A stretch of DNA of 64,000 bases from Clostridia bacterium (GCA_016935835.1 JAFGQE010000024.1:12338-76337), one strand, 5' to 3'; shown: positions 8,762 to 19,424, counted from the first letter of the stretch. Numbers and translations are program-made. Notes: generated by a model not told the origin, from the sequence alone.

Positions 8762-10594
8762 TCAGTTTGCCGCGCCATGCCTGCCGCGCACGGTGTACGT
8801 GGTATGGAGCAACTCATGGGACGTGTGCCCGAGCGGTTTTCCGAGGAATTCCTCATATATTTTAACTATGTCAGGATTCTCGTGGGATTTTCTGATTTTC
8901 TTTCCCTCATCCTCCCGGTACAATGCAGCCATTCGCTTTTCCTTTGCCTTCTCATCCCTGGGCCTTGGCTGACCACCACCGTTTATGCAGCCCCCCGGGC
9001 ATCCCATTACTTCTATGAATAGATACAGGCTCTCTCCATCCTTGATTTCATTCATAAGAATCCCCGCCCCCACAAGCCCGCTCGTTACGGCTACTTTCAC
9101 GGCGACTCCATTGAGGAAAGCCCATTCCTCCTTTGCATTCTCAATCACAAGCTCCGCGGTCTTGATTCTTTCGAAGCCCGCGATAGGGGCAACATGCAAC
9201 TTGTCAAAAGGCAATTGCCTTCCGGTGACCAGCTCATAGACAGTTCTGAGCGCCGCCTCCATGACGCCCCCTGTTGACCCGAATATATCTGCCGCTCCTG
9301 AAGACAGCCCAAGGGGACTGTCAAATCCGCCATCGGCGAGTTTCTCAAAATTTATTCCGGCTTCCTTGATCATCCTTGCCAGTTCCCTTGTCGTCAGTAC
9401 GGCGTCGACATTCGCAACTCCTCCGTTGACCATTTCAGGTCTGGTTATCTCATACTTTTTTGCAGTGCACGGCATTATGGATACCACATACATATCCTCC
9501 GGCCTTACCCCGATTTTTTCGGCGAAATATGATTTTGCAAGGGCGCCCAGCATCATATGGGGGGACTTGCAGGATGAAACGTTGCCGAGCTGTCCGGGAT
9601 AGTAATGCTCTATGAATTTTATCCAGCCCGGGCTGCAGCTTGTTATCATTGGAATTGTTGCATTGACATTCCTGTGAAGTCCCAGTTCATCAATTTTTTT
9701 TGCAGAAATCGCTCCCTTTTGATAAAGCATCCCGACAATTCTATTTAGGAACTCAGTTCCTTCCTCGATTATAGTAAGGTCGGCCGCGAAGTTTGTGTCG
9801 AATACATGGTCAAAACCCATATCCCTTAGGGCGGAGGCCATTTTCCCCGTGACAAGCGTACCCGCCTCATACCCGAATTCTTCACCCAGCGCCGCCCGTA
9901 TCGCGGGGGCGGTCTGAACAACCACCGTCTTAGCGGGATTTGCCAGCGCAGCCCAGACATCCTGGGTCGAGTCCTTTTCATGAAGTGCGTTCACAGGGCA
10001 TACAACAGTACACTGTCCGCAGTTTGTGCACGCCGCTTGCCCAAGCAGGGTTTTGCCCCCGGCGCTTATAGCCGATGCGAATCCCCTGTCCTGTGCGTTA
10101 AGAATTCCCACCCCCTGCACCTCATTGCATATCGTGACGCATCTCCTGCAAAGAATGCACTTCGCGGCATCCCTTACTATGGAAGGACTGCTTTCATCTA
10201 TATATTCCTTCGATTTCTCTCCTTCATAGCTGCTTTCATCGGCCTGTATTATTTCACCGACAGCCTGCAATTCGCAGCTCTTGTTCCTTGAGCAGCTAAG
10301 ACAGTCCTTGGGGTGGTCGGAAAGGATGAGCTCATACATTATCTTCCTTGATTCGCGAACCCTTTCAGTGTTCGTCCTAACCACCATGCCCTCCGATGCA
10401 GGTGTTACGCATGAGGCCTGCAGAGTCCTGGCTCCCTCGACTTCAACCATGCATATTCTGCACGAACCGGTTTTATGAATATTTTCAAGATGACATAAGG
10501 TCGGTATTTTGACATTAAGTTTCCTGGCGGCATCCAGGATAGTAGCCCCTTCCGGGACGCTTACAGATTTTCCGTTGACAGTCAGATTTATCAT
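8762..10594 (-). CDS. hydA: [FeFe]-hydrogenase-like catalytic subunit (HydA / StnC-like) with N-terminal [2Fe-2S], His-ligated and 2x[4Fe-4S] ferredoxin domains
   Basis: H-domain motifs L2 'MPCTAKKYE' and L3 'EVMGCPGGCINGGGQP' are present. L1 reads 'TSCSPGW' instead of TSCCPxW. The N-terminus has CxxC clusters and 'HPKDCLSCSRNKSC'. ATG at 10594 with an RBS GGAAGG. Confidence 0.8.
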   Translation of the reverse strand: MINLTVNGKSVSVPEGATILDAARKLNVKIPTLCHLENIHKTGSCRICMVEVEGARTLQASCVTPASEGMVVRTNTERVRESRKIMYELILSDHPKDCLSCSRNKSCELQAVGEIIQADESSYEGEKSKEYIDESSPSIVRDAAKCILCRRCVTICNEVQGVGILNAQDRGFASAISAGGKTLLGQAACTNCGQCTVVCPVNALHEKDSTQDVWAALANPAKTVVVQTAPAIRAALGEEFGYEAGTLVTGKMASALRDMGFDHVFDTNFAADLTIIEEGTEFLNRIVGMLYQKGAISAKKIDELGLHRNVNATIPMITSCSPGWIKFIEHYYPGQLGNVSSCKSPHMMLGALAKSYFAEKIGVRPEDMYVVSIMPCTAKKYEITRPEMVNGGVANVDAVLTTRELARMIKEAGINFEKLADGGFDSPLGLSSGAADIFGSTGGVMEAALRTVYELVTGRQLPFDKLHVAPIAGFERIKTAELVIENAKEEWAFLNGVAVKVAVTSGLVGAGILMNEIKDGESLYLFIEVMGCPGGCINGGGQPRPRDEKAKEKRMAALYREDEGKKIRKSHENPDIVKIYEEFLGKPLGHTSHELLHTTYTVRGRHGAAN

Positions 10595-10602
10595 ATCTTC
10601 GC

Positions 10603-13600
10603 CTAACCTTCCCGCCTGTCGCAACGCAGGCACCTCATTGCTTCGGCAGTAGCATTCAGCTTGTGAAATCCCAGTGAAACCTCATTGAAATTACCTTTCC
10701 TGTCCTTTGGATCAAGCCATTTCATCTCGAATCTCTCATGCTCCACCAATTCCGATTCATCGAAATTCATCGGTATTTCAATTTCCCTGCCCTTGTTCAG
10801 AATACCGGTGCCGCCTAGGAATCTATCTATTGCGGATGCGGCTTTCTTTCCATCGGCTATGGCAGTTATTACGGCATCGGATCCCCTGACCACGTCGCCT
10901 CCGGCAAAAATTCCTTCCATGGTTGTCATCTGTGTATCCCTGTCGACGACAAATGTCCCCCATTTCGTTATCTGAACCTCTTCCTTGCTCACAAACGGCA
11001 AATCCGAGTACTGGCTGACCGCCGGAATTATCATGTCGGCTTCTATCCTTACGGTTTCCCCGCTGCATTCCCTCGGAATCTTTCTTCCTCCCGAATCAAA
11101 TCCACGCAGTTCCATTTTTTGGCATTCGACAAATTCAATCTTTCCGTTTCCCCTGAATGCCACCGGCGACATCAACTGGTGAATCCTGACGCCCTCTTCC
11201 ATTGCGTCATTTATTTCCCTGGCATCCGCCGGCATGTCTTTTTTAGTTCTTCTGTACAATATATGAACTTCATCGGCTCCAAGCCTGAGCGCAACCCTTG
11301 CCGCGTCAATCGCCGTGTTGCCACCTCCGATGACAATGACCCTGCCGCTGACTTCAGTAAGCCTGCCAAGATGAACATCCTTCAAAAAGTCGAGCCCATG
11401 GTATACGCCGGGCATGTTTTCCCCTTCAATCCCGATTTCCTTTGAAACCTGTGCACCGGTCGCAATATATATCGAATCATGCCTGTCCTTTATTTCTTTG
11501 AAGGTTATATTCTTTCCCACTTCAGTTTCCGTCAGTATTTTTATGCCTATTTGCTTTAGTGTATTTATTTCCTTTTGCAGTATCTCCTTGGGCAGCCTGT
11601 ACTCGGGTATTGCATAGGCCAGCATCCCGCCCGCTATTTTCTCGGCTTCGTAGACCGTCACATCATACCCAAGCCTGCCAAGATAATATGCGCATGTAAG
11701 TCCCGAAGGCCCGGCTCCGATTATACCGACCGATTTATCCCTTTTTCTTGAAATGATATCAGAGAACGGGCTAGTGTCCTTCATGGCCTCATCGGCCGCA
11801 TATCTCTTCAAATCCATGATTGCAATCGGATCATCCAGCTGAGCCCTTCTGCACCTGCTTTCACAAGGATGCGTGCAAACCCTTCCGCAAACCGACGGGA
11901 ACGGATTCTCCCTTCGGATGAGATTATATGCGTCCTTCACCCTTCCTGCCGCGATAAGCGCTATATAACCCGGAACATTGACTCCCGCCGGGCATGCGTT
12001 TTCACACGGGGATATGAAAAGATCAGAACAAACGCCCGCCCTGCAGTATTTGTCCCTGATATGCTCTTCATATTCCTCCCTGAAGTATTTTATTGTGCTC
12101 AATACGGGATTGGGTGCAGTTTGCCCGAGGCCGCACAAGGCTGTGTCCTTTATCGCCTTTCCAAGCTTCTCAAGCTTCTCGATGTCGCCTTCCTTTCCCT
12201 TTCCCTTTGTAATCCTTTCAAGGATTTCCAGCATTCTTTTCGTTCCAAGCCTGCATGCCACGCATTTGCCACATGATTCATCCTGTACGAACTCCATGAA
12301 GAATCTCGCCACATCAACCATGCAGGTGTCCTCATCCATGCATATCAAACCTCCGGACCCCATGATTGCGCCAAGCTCCACCAAGGAGTCATAATCCACC
12401 GGGACATTAAGATGCTCTCCCGTAAGGCATCCGCCGGACGGGCCCCCGGTTTGCGCCACTTTGAATTTCTTGCCTCTTGGTATTCCGCCGCCAACATCAA
12501 AAATGACTTCACCCAGCGTAATTCCCATCGGAACCTCAATTATTCCGGTATTGTTTATATCCCCTGCAAGCGCAAAGACCTTTGTCCCCTTGCTTTTTTC
12601 CGTTCCTATTTGCGAAAACCAGTCCGCCCCGTTGAGTATGATGCTCCTTACGTTTCCAAAGGTCTCCACATTGTTTATTATGGTCGGTTTTCCGAACAGT
12701 CCCTTTTCAGAAGGATACGGCGGCTTTTGCCTCGGTTCCCCCCTCTGCCCTTCAACTGATGCAATCAGGGCGGTTTCCTCGCCGCATACAAAAGCACCCG
12801 CCCCTATTCTTATTTCAATATCAAAGTCAAGGCCTTTTTCAAAGATATTCTTTCCAAGTAAATTCGCTTTTTTTGCCTGCCCAAGGGCATTCTCAAGTCT
12901 CTCGACCGCAAGCGGATATTCAGCCCTGACATACACATATCCCTTGTTCGCACCGATTGCATATGCGGCTATTGCCATTCCTTCTATCAGGCTGTGCGCA
13001 TCCCCTTCCAAAAGACTTCTGTCCATGAATGCACCAGGGTCCCCTTCGTCTGCGTTGCATATGACATATTTTTCATTCCCCGGGCTCTTGTTGGCAAGCT
13101 TCCACTTCAGTCCGGTAGGGAAACCCCCGCCGCCCCTTCCCCTCAGACCGGACCGGGTCATCTCGGAAATAACATCATCGGGGGTCATTTCCGAAAGAAC
13201 TTTGTACAAACCCATGTATCCATCATTCACAACATATTCCTCAAGCGACAGGCAATCAATGCTCCCGCAGTTCTTCAGCACTATCTTCTGCTGGCTTTTG
13301 AAAAAATCTATGTCCTTGATAAATGGAACCGGTTCGCCCGTTTCCTTGTCCTTAATGCAGAATTCCGTTGCTATCCCGCCTTCGATTATGTCCTTGCGCA
13401 CAATTGTTTCCATGTCCTGTGGCCCAAGGTTGCAATAGAAGACATCCCCCGGTTTTACTATCATCGCAGGGCCGATGTTGCATGTTCCCATGCATCCAGT
13501 CAGTTTCAAGTCTATTTTCTTATCCGGGCAAAGTCTGGCCAGCGCCTTTACAAGGGCATCCTTGACCGCCCCGCAGTTCGATGAAATGCATCCGGCGCCC

Positions 13601-13701
13601 GAACATATCAGTATGGTATAGTCATATTGCCTTTGTCTCTCCAGATAGCCCGCCTTTATTTCTTCAAGGTTCTTTCTTCCATTGATTGGTTTTGAACTCA
13701 T
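10603..13701 (-). CDS. hydB: NuoF-like FMN/NAD(H) subunit (HydB-like), fused at the C-terminus to a GltD/NfnB-like FAD/NAD(P)H oxidoreductase domain
   Basis: 1032 aa. The N-terminus is a thioredoxin-like [2Fe-2S] domain, followed by the NuoF motifs ('GRGGGGFPTGLKW', 'ESCGKCVACRLG'). Then come a GltD-type 2x[4Fe-4S] region and an 'IIGAGPSGL' Rossmann fold. RBS AGGAGG. Confidence 0.8.
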   Translation of the reverse strand: MSSKPINGRKNLEEIKAGYLERQRQYDYTILICSGAGCISSNCGAVKDALVKALARLCPDKKIDLKLTGCMGTCNIGPAMIVKPGDVFYCNLGPQDMETIVRKDIIEGGIATEFCIKDKETGEPVPFIKDIDFFKSQQKIVLKNCGSIDCLSLEEYVVNDGYMGLYKVLSEMTPDDVISEMTRSGLRGRGGGGFPTGLKWKLANKSPGNEKYVICNADEGDPGAFMDRSLLEGDAHSLIEGMAIAAYAIGANKGYVYVRAEYPLAVERLENALGQAKKANLLGKNIFEKGLDFDIEIRIGAGAFVCGEETALIASVEGQRGEPRQKPPYPSEKGLFGKPTIINNVETFGNVRSIILNGADWFSQIGTEKSKGTKVFALAGDINNTGIIEVPMGITLGEVIFDVGGGIPRGKKFKVAQTGGPSGGCLTGEHLNVPVDYDSLVELGAIMGSGGLICMDEDTCMVDVARFFMEFVQDESCGKCVACRLGTKRMLEILERITKGKGKEGDIEKLEKLGKAIKDTALCGLGQTAPNPVLSTIKYFREEYEEHIRDKYCRAGVCSDLFISPCENACPAGVNVPGYIALIAAGRVKDAYNLIRRENPFPSVCGRVCTHPCESRCRRAQLDDPIAIMDLKRYAADEAMKDTSPFSDIISRKRDKSVGIIGAGPSGLTCAYYLGRLGYDVTVYEAEKIAGGMLAYAIPEYRLPKEILQKEINTLKQIGIKILTETEVGKNITFKEIKDRHDSIYIATGAQVSKEIGIEGENMPGVYHGLDFLKDVHLGRLTEVSGRVIVIGGGNTAIDAARVALRLGADEVHILYRRTKKDMPADAREINDAMEEGVRIHQLMSPVAFRGNGKIEFVECQKMELRGFDSGGRKIPRECSGETVRIEADMIIPAVSQYSDLPFVSKEEVQITKWGTFVVDRDTQMTTMEGIFAGGDVVRGSDAVITAIADGKKAASAIDRFLGGTGILNKGREIEIPMNFDESELVEHERFEMKWLDPKDRKGNFNEVSLGFHKLNATAEAMRCLRCDRREG

Positions 13702-13713
13702 ACAGCAATCCTC

Positions 13714-14214
13714 CTATTCATACTGCGCAAGGATCTGACGAAGTTTATTCGGATTTACACGTTTATAAACTGTATCGTCTATCGCAATTGCGGGAGCCAG
13801 TCCGCAGGCGCCGATGCATCTCATGACTTCAAGTGAAAAAGTCATGTCCTTGGTCGTTTCCCCTACATCAATCTCCAGCAATTCCTTTATTCTTTCCACT
13901 ATCTTGCTTCCGCCCCTTACATAACAGGCGGTTCCAAGGCAGACTTTTATGGTATGCTTCCCCTTGGGTTGCGTTGAGAACAGGGAATAAAAGGAAACGA
14001 CTCCCTGGATCCTTGACATGGAAAGATTCATCTCGTCCGCTATTGTAATCAAGACGTTTTCCGGCAGGTAGCCAAAGATCGCCTGCGCCATGTGGAGAAT
14101 TTGAATCAGATTGCTTTCCTTTGCCTCATACTTTTCTATGGTTTGCCTAAGAAGTGAAAATTTCTCATTTTCATTGATTTCGCAGCATCCGCACTGCGTC
14201 TCATTGTTTGACAT
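13714..14214 (-). CDS. hydC: NuoE-like thioredoxin-fold [2Fe-2S] subunit (HydC-like)
   Basis: 166 aa with 'CLGTACYVRGG...CIGACGLAP' NuoE cysteine motifs. RBS GGGGGTG. First gene of the three-gene operon. Confidence 0.8.
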   Translation of the reverse strand: MSNNETQCGCCEINENEKFSLLRQTIEKYEAKESNLIQILHMAQAIFGYLPENVLITIADEMNLSMSRIQGVVSFYSLFSTQPKGKHTIKVCLGTACYVRGGSKIVERIKELLEIDVGETTKDMTFSLEVMRCIGACGLAPAIAIDDTVYKRVNPNKLRQILAQYE

Positions 14215-14470
14215 TGATGCACCCCCGTTATTTTTTCATAATCCCCGCAGAATCAGAGTCATGTGTTTGATTCATTCGGCAATGCCCTCCGTCATGCGGT
14301 TTCGTGCAGTCTCCGGATGTGGGCTGCACGGCAATTCATATGACCCGGACCAAGCTTACTCTTCATTGGAATCCCCAAATTTCCTATGAAAAAACGGATG
14401 CCGCCAAGTCCCTGATAATTAATGATCAACTTGGATGGCCGGGTCTGCAGTGGCAACCGCATTCAAAAGA

Positions 14471-14554
14471 TTGTCAAATATTTATCAATCTTTAATAAAT
14501 ATTATACAATTGTAAATACTGTTTGCGCAAGTACTTTTGTGAATTATTTATCAA
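14471..14554. promoter_or_regulatory. two copies of an 18-bp Rex-like operator (TTGTCAAATATTTATCAA at 14471-14488; TTGTGAATTATTTATCAA at 14537-14554) flanking a candidate minus-strand promoter (-10 TATAAT = complement of 14501-14506)
   Basis: The repeated motif is close to the Rex consensus TTGTGAA-N4-TTCACAA. It lies in the upstream region of the hydC-hydB-hydA operon. Confidence 0.4.
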
Positions 14555-14625
14555 TGTTTCGGGTTATTTTTTGCGCAATAAAATAAAAGGGCAAGGTTTA
14601 AAACATATGTTTTTTATTCGTTGGT

Positions 14626-15660
14626 TTAACCCCTGCTTTGTACGAATGATTTCAATGTTTCCACAATGCGCAGAACATCCTCGCCGGAAACTCCGAAATT
14701 TGTGACAAACCGAAAAACCCCTTGGTCCGGCGGATACACCTTTATGCCATTTTTAAAGAAATATTCTTTGAAATCACTGGAATCGATTGCGAAATCCAGC
14801 CTGAAGAAAACCATGTTTATATCCCGCCTGTCCTCAAATACGCTGACCCCGGCAATTTTTCCAAGTCCTTTTGCAAGAGTGTCCGCGTTTGCATGATCTT
14901 CATCAAGCCTTGCTGCCATCTTTTTCAATGCTATCAGTCCGGGCGCGGCCAGAACCCCCGCCTGTCTCATTCCTCCGCCCATGATTTTTCTTTTATACCG
15001 GGCCCGTTCAATGAAATCCCCGGTTCCGGCTAAAATTGACCCGACCGGCGCACCCAGGCCTTTTGACAGGCAGAACATAACGGAATCACAATGCTTTGTT
15101 ATATCCTCTGCTTCCGTTCCCATGGAAACCGCCGCATTGAACAGCCTTGCTCCGTCAAGATGAACAGGTATGCCAAATCTATGCGCAACATCATATACAT
15201 CCTTCATCTTTTCGGGGGCTATGGCCCTTCCGCTTGAATGGGCGTTCTCAACGCAGACAAGCCCTGTTTCGGGAAAATGGATATCCCTTTCCTTCCTGAT
15301 TCTCTTTTCAAGTTCCCCGGGGTCAAGGATACCCAAAGGGCAATTGACGGCGCGCAACTGGACCCCGGCAATTATAGAAGCGGCGCCGGCCTCATGCTCG
15401 ACTATATGGCAGCTTTCATCCAAAATAACCTCATTGCCCCTGGAACAATGTGTAAAAAGCGAAAGCTGGTTTCCGAACGTTCCGCTTGGAACAAAAATCG
15501 CAGCTTCCTTTCCCGCGACTCTCGCTGATTCCTTTTCAAGCTCGATTACCGTGGGATCATCCCCGCAGACATCGTCCCCGACCTCCGCATTATACATGGC
15601 CAGCCTCATCTCTTCCGTGGGTTTTGTTACGGTATCACTCCGAATATCAATCATCCTCAT
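14626..15660 (-). CDS. ltaE: low-specificity L-threonine aldolase
   Basis: 'IDLRSDTVTKPT' N-terminus, a PLP-lysine region, and the beta-eliminating-lyase family signature throughout. Confidence 0.8.
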   Translation of the reverse strand: MRMIDIRSDTVTKPTEEMRLAMYNAEVGDDVCGDDPTVIELEKESARVAGKEAAIFVPSGTFGNQLSLFTHCSRGNEVILDESCHIVEHEAGAASIIAGVQLRAVNCPLGILDPGELEKRIRKERDIHFPETGLVCVENAHSSGRAIAPEKMKDVYDVAHRFGIPVHLDGARLFNAAVSMGTEAEDITKHCDSVMFCLSKGLGAPVGSILAGTGDFIERARYKRKIMGGGMRQAGVLAAPGLIALKKMAARLDEDHANADTLAKGLGKIAGVSVFEDRRDINMVFFRLDFAIDSSDFKEYFFKNGIKVYPPDQGVFRFVTNFGVSGEDVLRIVETLKSFVQSRG

Positions 15661-16034
15661 ACAATTCTTCCTTTCACCCGGGTTTCAACCGGCATTGTGT
15701 CAGAGTGTTCTAACAATGAAATTATAGTCGGTTGCCTGTTCGCTTCATAATTTATAATATAAAATACCGGGGGTTTTCACAAGTATGCTTCTATCCGGAC
15801 CCAGTATATTTTTGCTGCCCTTATATCAGCATGCCCAACCCGATTATACTGCGGGTCACGACGGCCGCTTTGACTATCCGGCTTATTCCGGTTTTCCTGT
15901 ATGCCGGAAATCTTATCCTCCCGCTTCTGTCAAAAACCTTGTTTATTAAAAAACCGGCAACTATCACTATATAGAAATGGATTTAACCTTCGATTTATAT
16001 TAAAATGTGTTTAAATATTTACAGGAGGCACTTC

Positions 16035-16382
16035 ATGGACAAAATGACAAGAATCGATATCATAACCAGACCTTCGAAATTTGATGAGCTAAAGGAAGCC
16101 CTCAATTCAATCGGGGTTACGGGAATGACCGTAAGCCAGGTGATGGGATGTGGAATGCAAAAAGGCTCCCGGGAGATGTACCGCGGGACCCCTGTTGAAA
16201 TAACGCTTCTCCCAAAGATTAAAATTGAAACCGTTGTCTGCGAAGTCCCTGTTGACCTTGTGATTGAAACCGCAAAAAAGGTTCTCTATACCGGGGAGAT
16301 AGGCGACGGGAAAATTTTTGTATATACCGTTGATAATGCAATAAAGATCCGCACCGGTGAAGAGGGCGTAAAGGCGCTGTAG
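16035..16382 (+). CDS. glnB: nitrogen regulatory protein P-II (GlnB/GlnK family)
   Basis: 112-115 aa with a T-loop 'GMQKGSREMYRG' and the C-terminal 'GDGKIFV' motif. An RBS AGGAGG precedes the ATG at 16035. Confidence 0.8.
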   Translation: MDKMTRIDIITRPSKFDELKEALNSIGVTGMTVSQVMGCGMQKGSREMYRGTPVEITLLPKIKIETVVCEVPVDLVIETAKKVLYTGEIGDGKIFVYTVDNAIKIRTGEEGVKAL

Positions 16383-16408
16383 AGCTTGTTTTCTGTACTT
16401 AGCTTCTT

Positions 16409-16867
16409 TTATTTGCCCAATGCTTCAAGGATTTGCGCCGCATGCTCATTTGGCGAAACCTTCGGGAACACATGTGAAATCAACCGGTCCTCTCCAATTA
16501 TGAAGGTAGACCGCACTATTCCCATGTATTTTTTCCCATACATGCTTTTTTCGCCCCATGCTCCGTATGCCCCGGCCGTCAAATGGTCTTCGTCCGAAAG
16601 CAGATGGAAGGGTAGTCCAAGCTTTTCCCTGAAGTTATCATGTGAGGTTTGTCCATCCGGGCTAATTCCGACAATCACCGCGCCGGCATCCATGATGTCA
16701 TCATAAACATCCCTGAATCCCTCCGCCTCTATGGTGCAACCGGATGTGTTATCCTTGGGGTAAAAATACAGGACCACCTTTTTCCCCTCGAAATTTTTCA
16801 GTGAAATCTCTTTTCCCTCATGGTTTTTCAATATGAAATCAACTGCCCTGTCTCCTGGTTTAAGCAT
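16409..16867 (-). CDS. bcp: thiol peroxidase, bacterioferritin-comigratory-protein (Bcp)-type peroxiredoxin
   Basis: 'FYPKDNTSGCT' peroxidatic-Cys motif. RBS AGGAGG. Confidence 0.8.
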   Translation of the reverse strand: MLKPGDRAVDFILKNHEGKEISLKNFEGKKVVLYFYPKDNTSGCTIEAEGFRDVYDDIMDAGAVIVGISPDGQTSHDNFREKLGLPFHLLSDEDHLTAGAYGAWGEKSMYGKKYMGIVRSTFIIGEDRLISHVFPKVSPNEHAAQILEALGK

Positions 16868-17009
16868 TTCTTCGTCCTCCTGTCAGGTATTATTAATATT
16901 CATACCCCTCTCCAAAGGCGGATAACAGGGCAAAAACAGCTGTTTTTTGCGGATTTGAAGAAAAAAGGCCGCCAATTTGATATATTTTTCAACTAAAAAA
17001 ATAATTCTC

Positions 17010-17038
17010 TTGTGTTAAATATGTTTATACTATATAAT
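17010..17038 (+). promoter_or_regulatory. sigma-A-type promoter (TTGTGT-N17-TATAAT) about 200 nt upstream of the zinc-ribbon (zf-trcl) gene
   Basis: -35 at 17010-17015 and -10 at 17033-17038, with an exact 17-nt spacer. Confidence 0.5.
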
Positions 17039-17245
17039 ACTGTCCGTGAGGGGAAAATTCCCTTGCCCGGTAAAAGCACTTTTGTTTGAATCGGTTGGTT
17101 TGAATAATTGTTGCGGAGATTCGCTTGGTGGAATCAAATGCTCATGGGATAATGTCGGTTTCTCGGTTACCCTGGAGAAAGTTTTCTACACTTCGTCTAT
17201 ACCACAGCAATTAAAAAAAGTTTGTACAGAGAAAGAGGTAGGAAT

Positions 17246-17527
17246 ATGTACGAGGATAAGACATTGACATGTGCTGATTGCGGTGAAGAATTTCAATTCA
17301 CAGTATCGGAACAGGAATTTTACGCAGAAAAAGGGTTCTCAAATGAACCTAAAAGATGCCCTGATTGCAGATCTAATCGCAAAAGAACGCGTTTTAGCGG
17401 CGAACGTCAGATGCATGATGCAGTATGCGCAGGATGCGGGAAAAAGACACAGGTTCCCTTCAAGCCTACGGGTGAACGCCCTGTTTACTGCAGCGATTGC
17501 TTCAAAGCAAAAAGAAGTAGTTATTAA
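17246..17527 (+). CDS. tandem zinc-ribbon protein (zf-trcl-like, 'probable zinc-ribbon domain' repeated)
   Basis: 93 aa with two repeats of 'CxDCGxxFxFTxxEQEFYxEKGFxNxPKRCxxCR'. Confidence 0.6.
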   Translation: MYEDKTLTCADCGEEFQFTVSEQEFYAEKGFSNEPKRCPDCRSNRKRTRFSGERQMHDAVCAGCGKKTQVPFKPTGERPVYCSDCFKAKRSSY

Positions 17528-17562
17528 TAACAAATCTTTAGTCTAAGAGCAACGAATGAAAC

Positions 17563-17588
17563 GGCCCCGCCATGCGGGGCCTTTTTTA
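17563..17588 (+). terminator. rho-independent terminator of the zinc-ribbon gene (convergent with the crp-family gene)
   Basis: GGCCCCGC-cat-GCGGGGCC followed by TTTTTT. Confidence 0.8.
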
Positions 17589-18290
17589 CATCCTGTCGCC
17601 TTCTATTATTTTTTTCATGCCCCCGGGATCAAGAATTTCAATTTGCCGTCCGTTGAATGACAGGACACCTGCATCCCTTAGTTTTATCATCTCCCTTGAT
17701 AATGATGGTCTTTCAACGTTGAAAAATTCAGCAAGCTCATATCTTTTCATGGGTAAGTCTATGATACTTTTGCCTTTTTCCAAATAAATATTGTAAATAT
17801 ATGTACAAATTTTTGTTTTCAATCCCTTTATCGCCATGTATTCGATCCGTTTTGTGAGATTGACAGCCTTCCATGATAATATGCCAAGCATGTTTTGCTG
17901 AATTATGCGGTGTGCCTCGCATGCATTTGAGCACTGCCGCACTATGCTGCCCGGGATAATGTACATCACCGTGGAGTCGGTCAGACTTTCTACCGTGGCC
18001 GGCCACAGTCTCTCAAAGGCAAACGCCGCCGTTTCACCAAACAAGTCTCCTTTTCCAACGGATCCCAGTATAACCCTGTTTCCGGTAATCCCTGTCTTGA
18101 AAATTCCCATGGTTCCGCAAAGAACAAGACCGATTCCAAACAGGTCCCTTCCTTCAACTGCAGCAACATCGCCTTTTTTGTATTTTCTTATTACCGGATT
18201 CATGCATCCCAGCAAATGCTCCATTTCGCCCGATTTTATTCCCAGGAACAACTTGCTCTCCGCCAATGTTTTTATATATGTTCTGTACAT
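17586..18290 (-). CDS. Crp/Fnr-family transcriptional regulator (cNMP-binding domain + C-terminal helix-turn-helix (HTH)); possibly HcpR-like
   Basis: About 234 aa. The N-terminus is a cNMP/effector beta-roll ('GDLFGE...A') and the C-terminus is an HTH 'RYELAEFFNVERPSLSREM'. An RBS AGGAGA precedes the ATG at 18290. Confidence 0.75.
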   Translation of the reverse strand: MYRTYIKTLAESKLFLGIKSGEMEHLLGCMNPVIRKYKKGDVAAVEGRDLFGIGLVLCGTMGIFKTGITGNRVILGSVGKGDLFGETAAFAFERLWPATVESLTDSTVMYIIPGSIVRQCSNACEAHRIIQQNMLGILSWKAVNLTKRIEYMAIKGLKTKICTYIYNIYLEKGKSIIDLPMKRYELAEFFNVERPSLSREMIKLRDAGVLSFNGRQIEILDPGGMKKIIEGDRM

Positions 18291-18303
18291 ATTTCTCCTA
18301 CGT

Positions 18304-18317
18304 GTAACATATGTTAC
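18304..18317. promoter_or_regulatory. perfect 14-bp palindrome GTAACATATGTTAC (GTAAC-N4-GTTAC), a candidate Crp/Fnr(HcpR)-type operator
   Basis: It sits 14-28 nt upstream of the crp-family start codon, in the divergent region shared with the ferredoxin-like gene. Confidence 0.5.
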
Positions 18318-18512
18318 CAATATTATGAGTGAATTATATTATATTTACATTGTCTGTGCAATGGCACGGATAAGCGTGGAAGGTGCAGGGGTTTATACGC
18401 TTTTACCGGGAAATTCCCGGGCCCGGGATGCTTTAAAATGTAAAACAAGGCTATAAACAAGGCATTTTTACATTATCCGGCAAACCCTGGTTACATAAAG
18501 GAGATTAATTTT

Positions 18513-19232
18513 TTGAAAAGAGCAATAATACATATCGACGAGGAAAAATGCAATGGATGCGGGCTTTGCATAAGCGCCCGCCACGAAGGAGCCCTTCAGT
18601 TGGTTGATGGAAAGGCACGCTTGATTCTTGAATCATATTGCGATGGATTGGGAGACTGTCTTCCCGAATGTCCAAAGGGTGCGATAACGCTGGAGGAACG
18701 CGATGCCGCCGAATATGACGAAGAGGCCGTCAAGGCAAGAACAGTTGAAACGCCTTGCCATTCCTCAGAAACACTGGAGTGCGGTTGTCCCGGCTCACAG
18801 ACCCGAACAATCCATCATGAATCCACAAACAGCAAGGATCAGGGAAATACGTCTTTTTCTATTCCGTCCCAACTGCGGCAATGGCCGGTTCAGATCAAGC
18901 TGGTTCCAACAAGGGCACCATTCTTCAACAACGCACGGCTTCTTGTCGCTGCAGATTGCACCGCCTATGCCTATGCCGGTATCCATACTGACTTTATCAG
19001 GGATCGTATAACAATAATCGGATGTCCCAAGCTCGATATGACGGACTACACTGAAAAACTTTCCGCAATAATCAAGAACAATGATATACGCAGCATTACC
19101 GTTCTTAAAATGGAGGTTCCCTGTTGCAGCGGTCTCTCGAACTCTGTCAGGAATGCGATGGTTGACAGCGGCAAATACCTGCCCTGGAATGTTGTAACCG
19201 TTACAACGGACGGACAGCTGATAGAATCGTAG
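18513..19232 (+). CDS. ferredoxin-like iron-sulfur protein (2x[4Fe-4S] N-terminal domain plus a Cys-rich C-terminal domain; FrdX-like)
   Basis: 'CNGCGLC...CPKGAI' and 'CCSGLSN'. TTG start with a strong RBS AAGGAG 9 nt upstream. Confidence 0.6.
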   Translation: MKRAIIHIDEEKCNGCGLCISARHEGALQLVDGKARLILESYCDGLGDCLPECPKGAITLEERDAAEYDEEAVKARTVETPCHSSETLECGCPGSQTRTIHHESTNSKDQGNTSFSIPSQLRQWPVQIKLVPTRAPFFNNARLLVAADCTAYAYAGIHTDFIRDRITIIGCPKLDMTDYTEKLSAIIKNNDIRSITVLKMEVPCCSGLSNSVRNAMVDSGKYLPWNVVTVTTDGQLIES

Positions 19233-19424
19233 GCATTTGTATTAATCCACTGTCTGAACGCGAGCTGCCGCCGGGCTGTATTTTAGGCTGTCTTTCTCCC
19301 TTTGTTTTTGTGGTAAAATATCCTTGGATGGTTAAGCCGCACTTATTGTATGCAAACGCATCGGAATGACGGTTCGAGTTGTTTCCGAAAAGGGCAAGGG
19401 TGGCTGCGGCGGCGTAAGGGAAAG

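Follow-up and report, generated by a model that had tools for sequence, protein, structure and literature searches.

Members of the HcpR2 branch of regulators were described from Clostridium, Bacteroides, Thermotogales and T. denticola, where they co-localise with hcp (PMC1274295). In this branch a proline replaces Glu181 of CRP, and the core targets include frdX as well as hcp (PMC1274295). The consensus operator of HcpR2 is GTAACnnnnGTTAC (Rodionov et al., 2005; PMC1274295). In Clostridioides difficile, exposure to NO led to a roughly 200-fold, HcpR-dependent activation of frdX and hcp (PMC12915319, 2026), and knockdown of frdX sensitised the cells to NO (PMC12915319). The HcpR of P. gingivalis is an NO-responsive activator of hcp and binds haem through Met68 and His149 (bioRxiv 2024.09.06.611725).

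We analyzed a 64,000-nt stretch of DNA (64 kb; hereafter the window) from an uncultured Clostridia genome, in which a Crp/Fnr regulator gene and a ferredoxin-like gene are transcribed divergently, with a perfect palindrome between them (Table 1). The analysis indicates, with a probability of roughly 0.8, that the pair is a two-gene HcpR2-type module with predicted class II activation of frdX, predicted autorepression, and NO or nitrite as the most likely signal.

Table 1. Features of the divergent regulator-frdX region, in window coordinates
Feature	Coordinates	Strand	Remarks
GC-rich hairpin	17563-17581	.	terminator-like on both strands; separates the regulator stop codon from the convergent zinc-ribbon gene
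hcpR2-type Crp/Fnr regulator gene	17586-18290	minus	234 aa; ATG start at 18290-18288
Regulator ribosome-binding site AGGAG	18299-18295	minus	read from the sequence
HcpR2 operator GTAACATATGTTAC	18304-18317	.	perfect 14-bp palindrome, GTAAC-N4-GTTAC
Predicted -10 hexamer TATAAT, regulator's own promoter	18333-18338	minus	consensus promoter scan
Predicted -10 hexamer TATATT, HcpR-dependent frdX promoter	18340-18345	plus	32-nt spacing
Leader insertion of ~117 nt, specific to the organism	~18375-18495	plus	absent from L001-L005 (alignment)
frdX ribosome-binding site AAGGAG	18498-18503	plus	read from the sequence
frdX-like Fe-S protein gene	18513-19232	plus	239 aa; TTG start

The mechanical open reading frame of the regulator spans 17586-18320 and extends to a TTG at 18320. 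The start was placed at the ATG because an identical 234-aa NCBI protein and all homologues begin there; this entry, a Crp/Fnr protein labelled 'MAG: Clostridia bacterium', is 100% identical to the regulator. The divergent region had been given as 190 bp, a length that fits only when counted from the TTG at 18320; the two start codons are in fact separated by 222 bp (18291-18512). The regulator displayed the two-domain architecture of the Crp/Fnr family, with an N-terminal cNMP-binding-like sensor (PF00027 cNMP_binding, E 4.9e-12) and a C-terminal HTH_Crp_2 domain (PF13545, E 1.3e-12), both above the Pfam gathering scores. In NCBIfam, neither the regulator nor the frdX-like protein reached any curated cut-off.

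The recognition helix of the regulator was E-R-P-S-L-S-R-E, and a proline occupied the position of CRP Glu181, with the CRP numbering matched by inspection of our own alignment. The RPSLSR string did not vary among 37 aligned database homologues. Among 81 regulators, R194, S198 and R199 were invariant; the two arginines of the R-P-x-x-x-R helix were kept in all 81 and its proline in 74. The corresponding helix of T. maritima 1O5L is RPALSR. RPSLSR was also identified in Listeria Lmo0753, therefore the helix is not exclusive to HcpR.

For a comparative survey, each GTDB species was represented by one genome, and a scan with the alignment of the regulator yielded 80 loci with flanks of up to 10 kb. 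The regulator and the homologues of FrdX and Hcp were placed by tblastn, and palindromes by regular expression. The regulator was located near frdX, hcp or frdX-hcp in 74 of the 80 loci. It was divergent from frdX alone in 32, from hcp alone in 21 and from an frdX-hcp operon in 11; five regulators preceded hcp in the same orientation, and five were 1.5-9 kb away from frdX, with or without hcp. The other six adjoined neither gene. The hcp gene was present in 39 of the 80 related loci, and the frdX-only arrangement is common in these data. In 42/80 loci, the 520 nt upstream of the regulator contained an exact GTAAC-N4-GTTAC, with its centre typically 19.5-30.5 nt before the start codon. Presence of the motif followed the helix across the 80 loci: relatives with RPSLSR have the exact site, whereas RPSMSR clades (e.g. 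Ruminiclostridium) are without it. Helix-motif co-variation of this kind had been reported in 2005 (Rodionov et al., PMC1274295). On the basis of the operator, the recognition helix and the linkage of the genes, the window regulator was assigned to the HcpR2 family as a probable member. The original prediction had proposed an HcpR identity and named a ferredoxin-like frdX as a common target of such regulators. Both proposals were supported, the former by the RPSLSR helix, the published operator and the frdX/hcp linkage, the latter by the core regulon (PMC1274295) and by the linkage to frdX and/or hcp in 74/80 loci.

Reading of positions 17400-19400 confirmed that the palindrome is located 14-27 nt 5' of the regulator ATG. 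Its type had been ascribed to HcpR, and GTAAC-N4-GTTAC indeed equals the published HcpR2 motif (PMC1274295), so that an exact site of the GTAACnnnnGTTAC type is present at 18304-18317. The operator GTAACATATGTTAC was the sole match to GTAAC-N4-GTTAC in the 64-kb window in a pattern search that allowed one mismatch. By chance, 0.01 exact matches are expected per 64-kb window, and 0.54 matches with one mismatch; an exact match was produced in 1 of 100 dinucleotide-preserving shuffles. A weight matrix, 24 nt wide and derived from 47 sites in other genomes, scored the operator at 20.2 bits, whereas the second-highest score in the window was 6.6 bits. With the one-mismatch pattern search and the weight matrix, no further operator above shuffle noise was detected in the 64 kb. 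The sequence CAAACCCTGGTTAC at 18481-18494, which carries two mismatches and scored 0.3 bits with the weight matrix, was taken as a chance match.

Phylogenetic analysis by neighbour-joining (81 relatives; unrooted, without Fnr, ArcR, Flp and CooA) placed the window regulator in a sub-clade that was a deep sister of the hcp-linked clades. This deep branch contained the window together with L001 (89% regulator identity) and L002-L005 (54-58%), and all other loci of the survey were at most 43% identical. Including the metagenome contigs L084/L085 and L086, eight sub-clade loci were available. The regulator was divergent from frdX in all eight, and hcp was detected in none of them, the sequence covered past frdX being ~0.9 to 10 kb long, or 45 kb for the window. 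The lack of a hybrid-cluster-protein gene in the window, noted at the outset, was confirmed by tblastn with E. coli Hcp and by the list of open reading frames. Since the 64 kb contain neither hcp nor a second operator, the name-giving target is not seen in the window; this counts against the HcpR2-type module, as do the deep branching of the sub-clade and its identity of at most 43% to hcp-linked relatives.

Each of the eight sub-clade loci had one exact palindrome 17.5-20.5 nt before the regulator start, and its position was the same as in the window in L001-L005, L085 and L086. In the seven other loci the operator was ~66-86 bp from the frdX start, as obtained by subtraction. Gene order was also shared within the sub-clade. 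The syntenic neighbourhood comprised an [FeFe]-hydrogenase operon, threonine aldolase, a P-II protein, a peroxiredoxin, a zinc-ribbon protein, hcpR and frdX, with an M23 peptidase further on beyond frdX. Therefore, the pair appears to be a stand-alone unit that is stable in this lineage and passed on vertically. The original prediction had suggested a stand-alone autoregulated module. The stand-alone part was partly borne out, as regulator and frdX were paired without a nearby hcp in 8/8 loci; the autoregulated part stays a prediction from promoter-like hexamers.

The divergent gene had been described as encoding a 239-aa ferredoxin-like protein with a TTG start and an AAGGAG ribosome-binding site. 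This description was borne out, and the TTG is considered the right start because homologues of 236-247 aa cover the open reading frame from end to end. Fer4-family matches were found at residues 5-62, and the C-terminal domain corresponded to PF27217 AF_0155. The protein thus displayed the domain layout of FrdX, an N-terminal ferredoxin-type cysteine motif with a conserved cysteine-rich domain at the C-terminus. The FrdX family is very large and highly conserved; more than 8000 homologues were found and 8000 candidates were scored, many of them ~62% identical over the full length. Cys90, 92, 149, 171, 204 and 205 were invariant. FrdX homologues were located directly upstream of hcp in 11 divergent and two distant loci. 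Because homologues with 50-63% identity (tblastn) are located between hcpR and hcp in 11 loci, the 239-aa protein was assigned to the FrdX family. The window copy of frdX has the HcpR site and lacks hcp.

The ferredoxin-domain cysteine set of FrdX (C13, C16, C19, C23, C43, C49 and C53) was incomplete in the window. Position 23, the fourth cysteine of the first CxxCxxCxxxC motif, was arginine, whereas it was cysteine in 46 of 47 aligned family members and was kept in the 84%-identical FrdX of L001. The Cys23-to-Arg change may impair FrdX. An assembly error behind Arg23 and the leader insertion was ruled out by an independent Logan assembly of run SRR13394436, which was identical over 461 nt and confirmed the CGC codon of Arg23. 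Both features are therefore real, being reproduced base for base.

The frdX leader of the window was predicted to fold at -51.2 kcal/mol (z = -3.4), stabler than shuffled sequence. The intergenic spacer was 83-92 nt in L084-L086. A search of the insertion against Rfam (E <= 10) returned only two chance-level matches with E about 2, far below gathering, and blastn detected no second copy in the window or in the 80 loci; a known RNA or repeat was rejected on these grounds. The insertion places the operator ~200 bp from the frdX start codon, which counts against the HcpR2-type module as proposed.

To describe promoter geometry, 36 site-bearing loci were aligned on the palindrome. The consensus on the target-gene side was GTAAC-N4-GTTAC-CGATTT-N9-ATTaTAcTAcAAT. 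Measured between centres, the distance from the site to a TAnnnT on the target strand was exactly 32 nt in 28 of the 36 loci, the window included, and that to a TAnnnT on the regulator strand was 25 nt in 30. The TATAAT hexamer (18338-18333) was invariant in a six-locus alignment. These promoter elements are consensus matches and are to be read as predictions. A -10 hexamer is centred at -9.5, and the 32-nt spacing would accordingly put the operator at about -41.5. A site centred at -41.5 is in the class II position of Fnr and Crp activators. From TATATT, the predicted frdX transcription start is near 18352. From TATAAT, the regulator transcript is predicted to begin around 18326, which would put the operator at approximately +10 to +23 in the leader.

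The following mechanism may be proposed. As a dimer, the 234-aa regulator would use its R-P-S-L-S-R recognition helix to bind the single operator, GTAACATATGTTAC. When activated, the regulator at about -41.5 would act as a class II activator like Fnr and Crp: it would recruit RNA polymerase and switch on frdX, which encodes a two-domain iron-sulfur protein. Occupancy of the operator would simultaneously lower transcription of the regulator gene, resulting in negative autoregulation, because the operator is located in the regulator's leader and the two predicted promoters overlap back to back. Given the homology with the characterised HcpR systems of C. difficile, P. gingivalis, B. thetaiotaomicron and Desulfovibrio, the most likely activating signal is stress from NO or nitrite, which a cofactor of the N-terminal domain would sense. 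FrdX might act as an electron carrier.

The nearest solved structure to the regulator was full-length P. gingivalis HcpR (9DAY; phmmer, E 6e-20). In the phmmer alignment to 9DAY, by our own count, the positions of Met68 and His149 are taken by Lys65 and Glu148, so that the haem ligands of P. gingivalis HcpR are not kept in the window regulator. Cys29, Cys120 and Cys124 were found in 81/81 regulators, those adjoining hcp included, and His127 in 75/81. This pattern of residues suggests a cofactor site different from the haem site of P. gingivalis HcpR.

Other explanations of the locus were also considered. The recognition helix and the operator do not differ from those of hcp-linked relatives, and the three cysteines invariant in 81/81 regulators argue for one shared sensing mechanism. 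Both points speak against a paralogue of the HcpR2 branch which would bind the same operator, respond to another signal (redox state, O2 or CO) and control frdX alone, independently of Hcp and nitrosative stress. There is a precedent for such a paralogue in C. tetani, where the HcpR2 paralogue CTC0896 controls only an operon that codes for a permease and for a ferredoxin-like protein (PMC1274295). It would also be in agreement with the deep branching of the sub-clade, whose eight examined loci all lack a nearby hcp and whose conserved neighbourhood includes an [FeFe]-hydrogenase operon as well as genes for a peroxiredoxin and a zinc-ribbon protein, and with haem ligands that differ from those of P. 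gingivalis. However, in C. difficile NO induces frdX itself, and tolerance of NO requires this gene (PMC12915319), and on balance we regard a paralogue with a different signal as unlikely.

The palindrome might instead serve as an autorepressor operator only, with an independent frdX promoter that could be located inside the 117-nt insertion. The asymmetry of the site, 14-27 nt from the regulator ATG versus ~200 bp from the frdX start codon, is compatible with such an arrangement, and promoter-like A/T-rich stretches in the insertion are possible when inspected by eye. However, the consensus scan detected no promoter inside the insertion, the operator is only ~66-86 bp from frdX in the seven other sub-clade loci, and the exact 32-nt spacing to a -10-like hexamer on the target strand recurred in 28/36 loci; thus, we consider this arrangement very improbable. 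A chance occurrence of the palindrome without any regulatory role is effectively refuted by the conservation data. It could draw on the single site in the window and on the 0.54 one-mismatch matches expected there, but exact matches are expected only 0.01 times, the palindrome equals the published operator of the same regulator family, and its position was kept in 8/8 sub-clade loci despite diverged flanking intergenic sequence.

The HcpR2-type module with NO or nitrite as signal therefore remains the preferred reading. A more far-reaching picture may be drawn from the same data and is put forward as speculation that is probably not correct as a whole. It would combine a self-contained HcpR-FrdX circuit in an hcp-less lineage, in which FrdX has its own part to play in protection or signalling, with sensing by clostridial HcpR2 through a metal or Fe-S centre at Cys29, Cys120, Cys124 and His127, and not through a Met/His haem. 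In this organism the circuit would also be in flux, as the structured 117-nt insertion and the loss of Cys23 might indicate.

The window pair is an ordinary member of the nitrosative-stress switch of anaerobes known since 2005. With the operator defined, the labels 'Crp/Fnr family regulator' and '4Fe-4S binding protein' can give way to HcpR2-type regulator and FrdX target, respectively, and the locus has little significance beyond the annotation of these two genes in an uncultured Clostridia genome. The comparative data make modest additions to the 2005 regulon, namely a predicted fixed class II spacing of 32 nt with an overlapping promoter on the regulator strand, a large set of divergent regulator-frdX pairs without hcp, and the correlation of RPSLSR versus RPSMSR with the presence or absence of the GTAAC motif. 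The invariant Cys-Cys-Cys(-His) sensor signature could guide work on NO sensing by clostridial HcpR.

Compared with the published HcpR2 regulon (PMC1274295), the window shares the Crp/Fnr architecture, the proline at CRP Glu181, the GTAACnnnnGTTAC operator, frdX as target and the divergent arrangement of regulator and target. It differs in the lack of hcp in 64 kb, in belonging to a sub-clade at most 43% identical to hcp-linked members, and in the operator spacers of this sub-clade, which are A/T (ATAT, AATT, AAAT, ATTT) instead of the usual C-NN-G. The C. tetani CTC0896 system (PMC1274295) is likewise of the HcpR2 branch and divergent from a ferredoxin-like gene without an adjoining hcp, but its target operon includes a permease, and the likeness of the two ferredoxin-like genes is one of description.

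The C. difficile system also pairs an HcpR of the class Clostridia with a ferredoxin-like frdX and a shared upstream site (PMC12915319). However, frdX is paired with hcp there and stands alone in the window, and the C. difficile regulator has serine at position 181 and another motif (Rodionov, PMC1274295), whereas the window motif is of the canonical GTAAC type. The HcpR of P. gingivalis (9DAY, 6NP6) belongs to the same two-domain fold family and differs in its RQSLAR helix, its motif and its haem ligands Met68/His149, in place of which the family of the window regulator has the invariant Cys29, Cys120 and Cys124, plus His127. As in class II promoters of Fnr and Crp, the distance from the site centre to the -10 element is 32 nt and the promoter-proximal half-site overlaps the -35 position; in the window, unlike those promoters, this geometry is predicted from sequence conservation.

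Exact GTAAC-N4-GTTAC palindromes (HcpR sites) were present upstream of the regulators carrying an RPSLSR recognition helix among the 80 related regulator loci from other genomes (L001-L080). The RPSMSR clades of this set (Ruminiclostridium and others) were also divergent from frdX but had no exact GTAAC-N4-GTTAC, so a variant operator is presumably in use in these clades. The recognition helix of the Crp/Fnr protein Lmo0753 from Listeria (PDB 7T8O) is the identical RPSLSR, and therefore the helix signature by itself is insufficient to identify HcpR.

Three loci (L006, L009 and L046) each displayed two exact palindromes, one before the regulator and one before a frdX-hcp operon. This operon was adjacent to the regulator in L046 (474 bp away) and located about 8.5 kb from it in L006 and L009, which are examples of a dispersed HcpR2 regulon.

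The genes beside the module in the window (8762-17527) retained their synteny across the sub-clade, that is, the window and seven loci in which the regulator diverges from frdX without a nearby hcp. No HcpR site was detected at the hydrogenase, threonine aldolase, P-II, peroxiredoxin or zinc-ribbon genes of this region.

Features of the window beside and within the module
Feature	Position	Location or type	Remark
[FeFe]-hydrogenase operon	8762-14214	three genes, NADH-dependent (HydABC-like) type	
Threonine aldolase gene	within 8762-17527		
P-II protein gene	within 8762-17527		
Peroxiredoxin gene	16409-16867		
Zinc-ribbon protein gene	17222-17527		
Leader insertion, ~117 nt	18375-18495	frdX 5' leader	missing from 7/7 other sub-clade loci
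HcpR-like degenerate sequence CAAACCCTGGTTAC	18481-18494	3' end of leader insertion	2 mismatches
frdX codon 23, CGC (Arg)	18579-18581	frdX	Cys in 46/47 aligned FrdX family members

The insertion in the frdX leader was structured (z = -3.4) and was also found in an independent assembly. It gave no significant match to Rfam, and a search for a second copy found none. An RNA locus, SnoA, has been described between hcpR and hcp in Bacteroides (2026 preprint, PMC13370916); it is pure speculation that the insertion could be analogous to it. The HcpR-like CAAACCCTGGTTAC lies directly upstream of the frdX ribosome-binding site; its score of 0.3 bits is at noise level, and it is probably a chance occurrence.

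In the Fe-S protein FrdX, residue 23 stands where the first CxxCxxCxxxC motif has its fourth Cys. The CGC codon was seen again in a second assembly, and Arg23 may have cost FrdX a ligand of one Fe-S cluster.

In the window regulator (17586-18290), Cys29, Cys120 and Cys124 were invariant in all 81 related regulators (81/81), and His127 was shared by 75 of the 81. These four residues may constitute a distinct cofactor site of clostridial HcpR2 proteins. By comparison with the haem-binding HcpR of P. gingivalis, the nearest solved structure, the haem ligands Met68 and His149 are not conserved in the window regulator.
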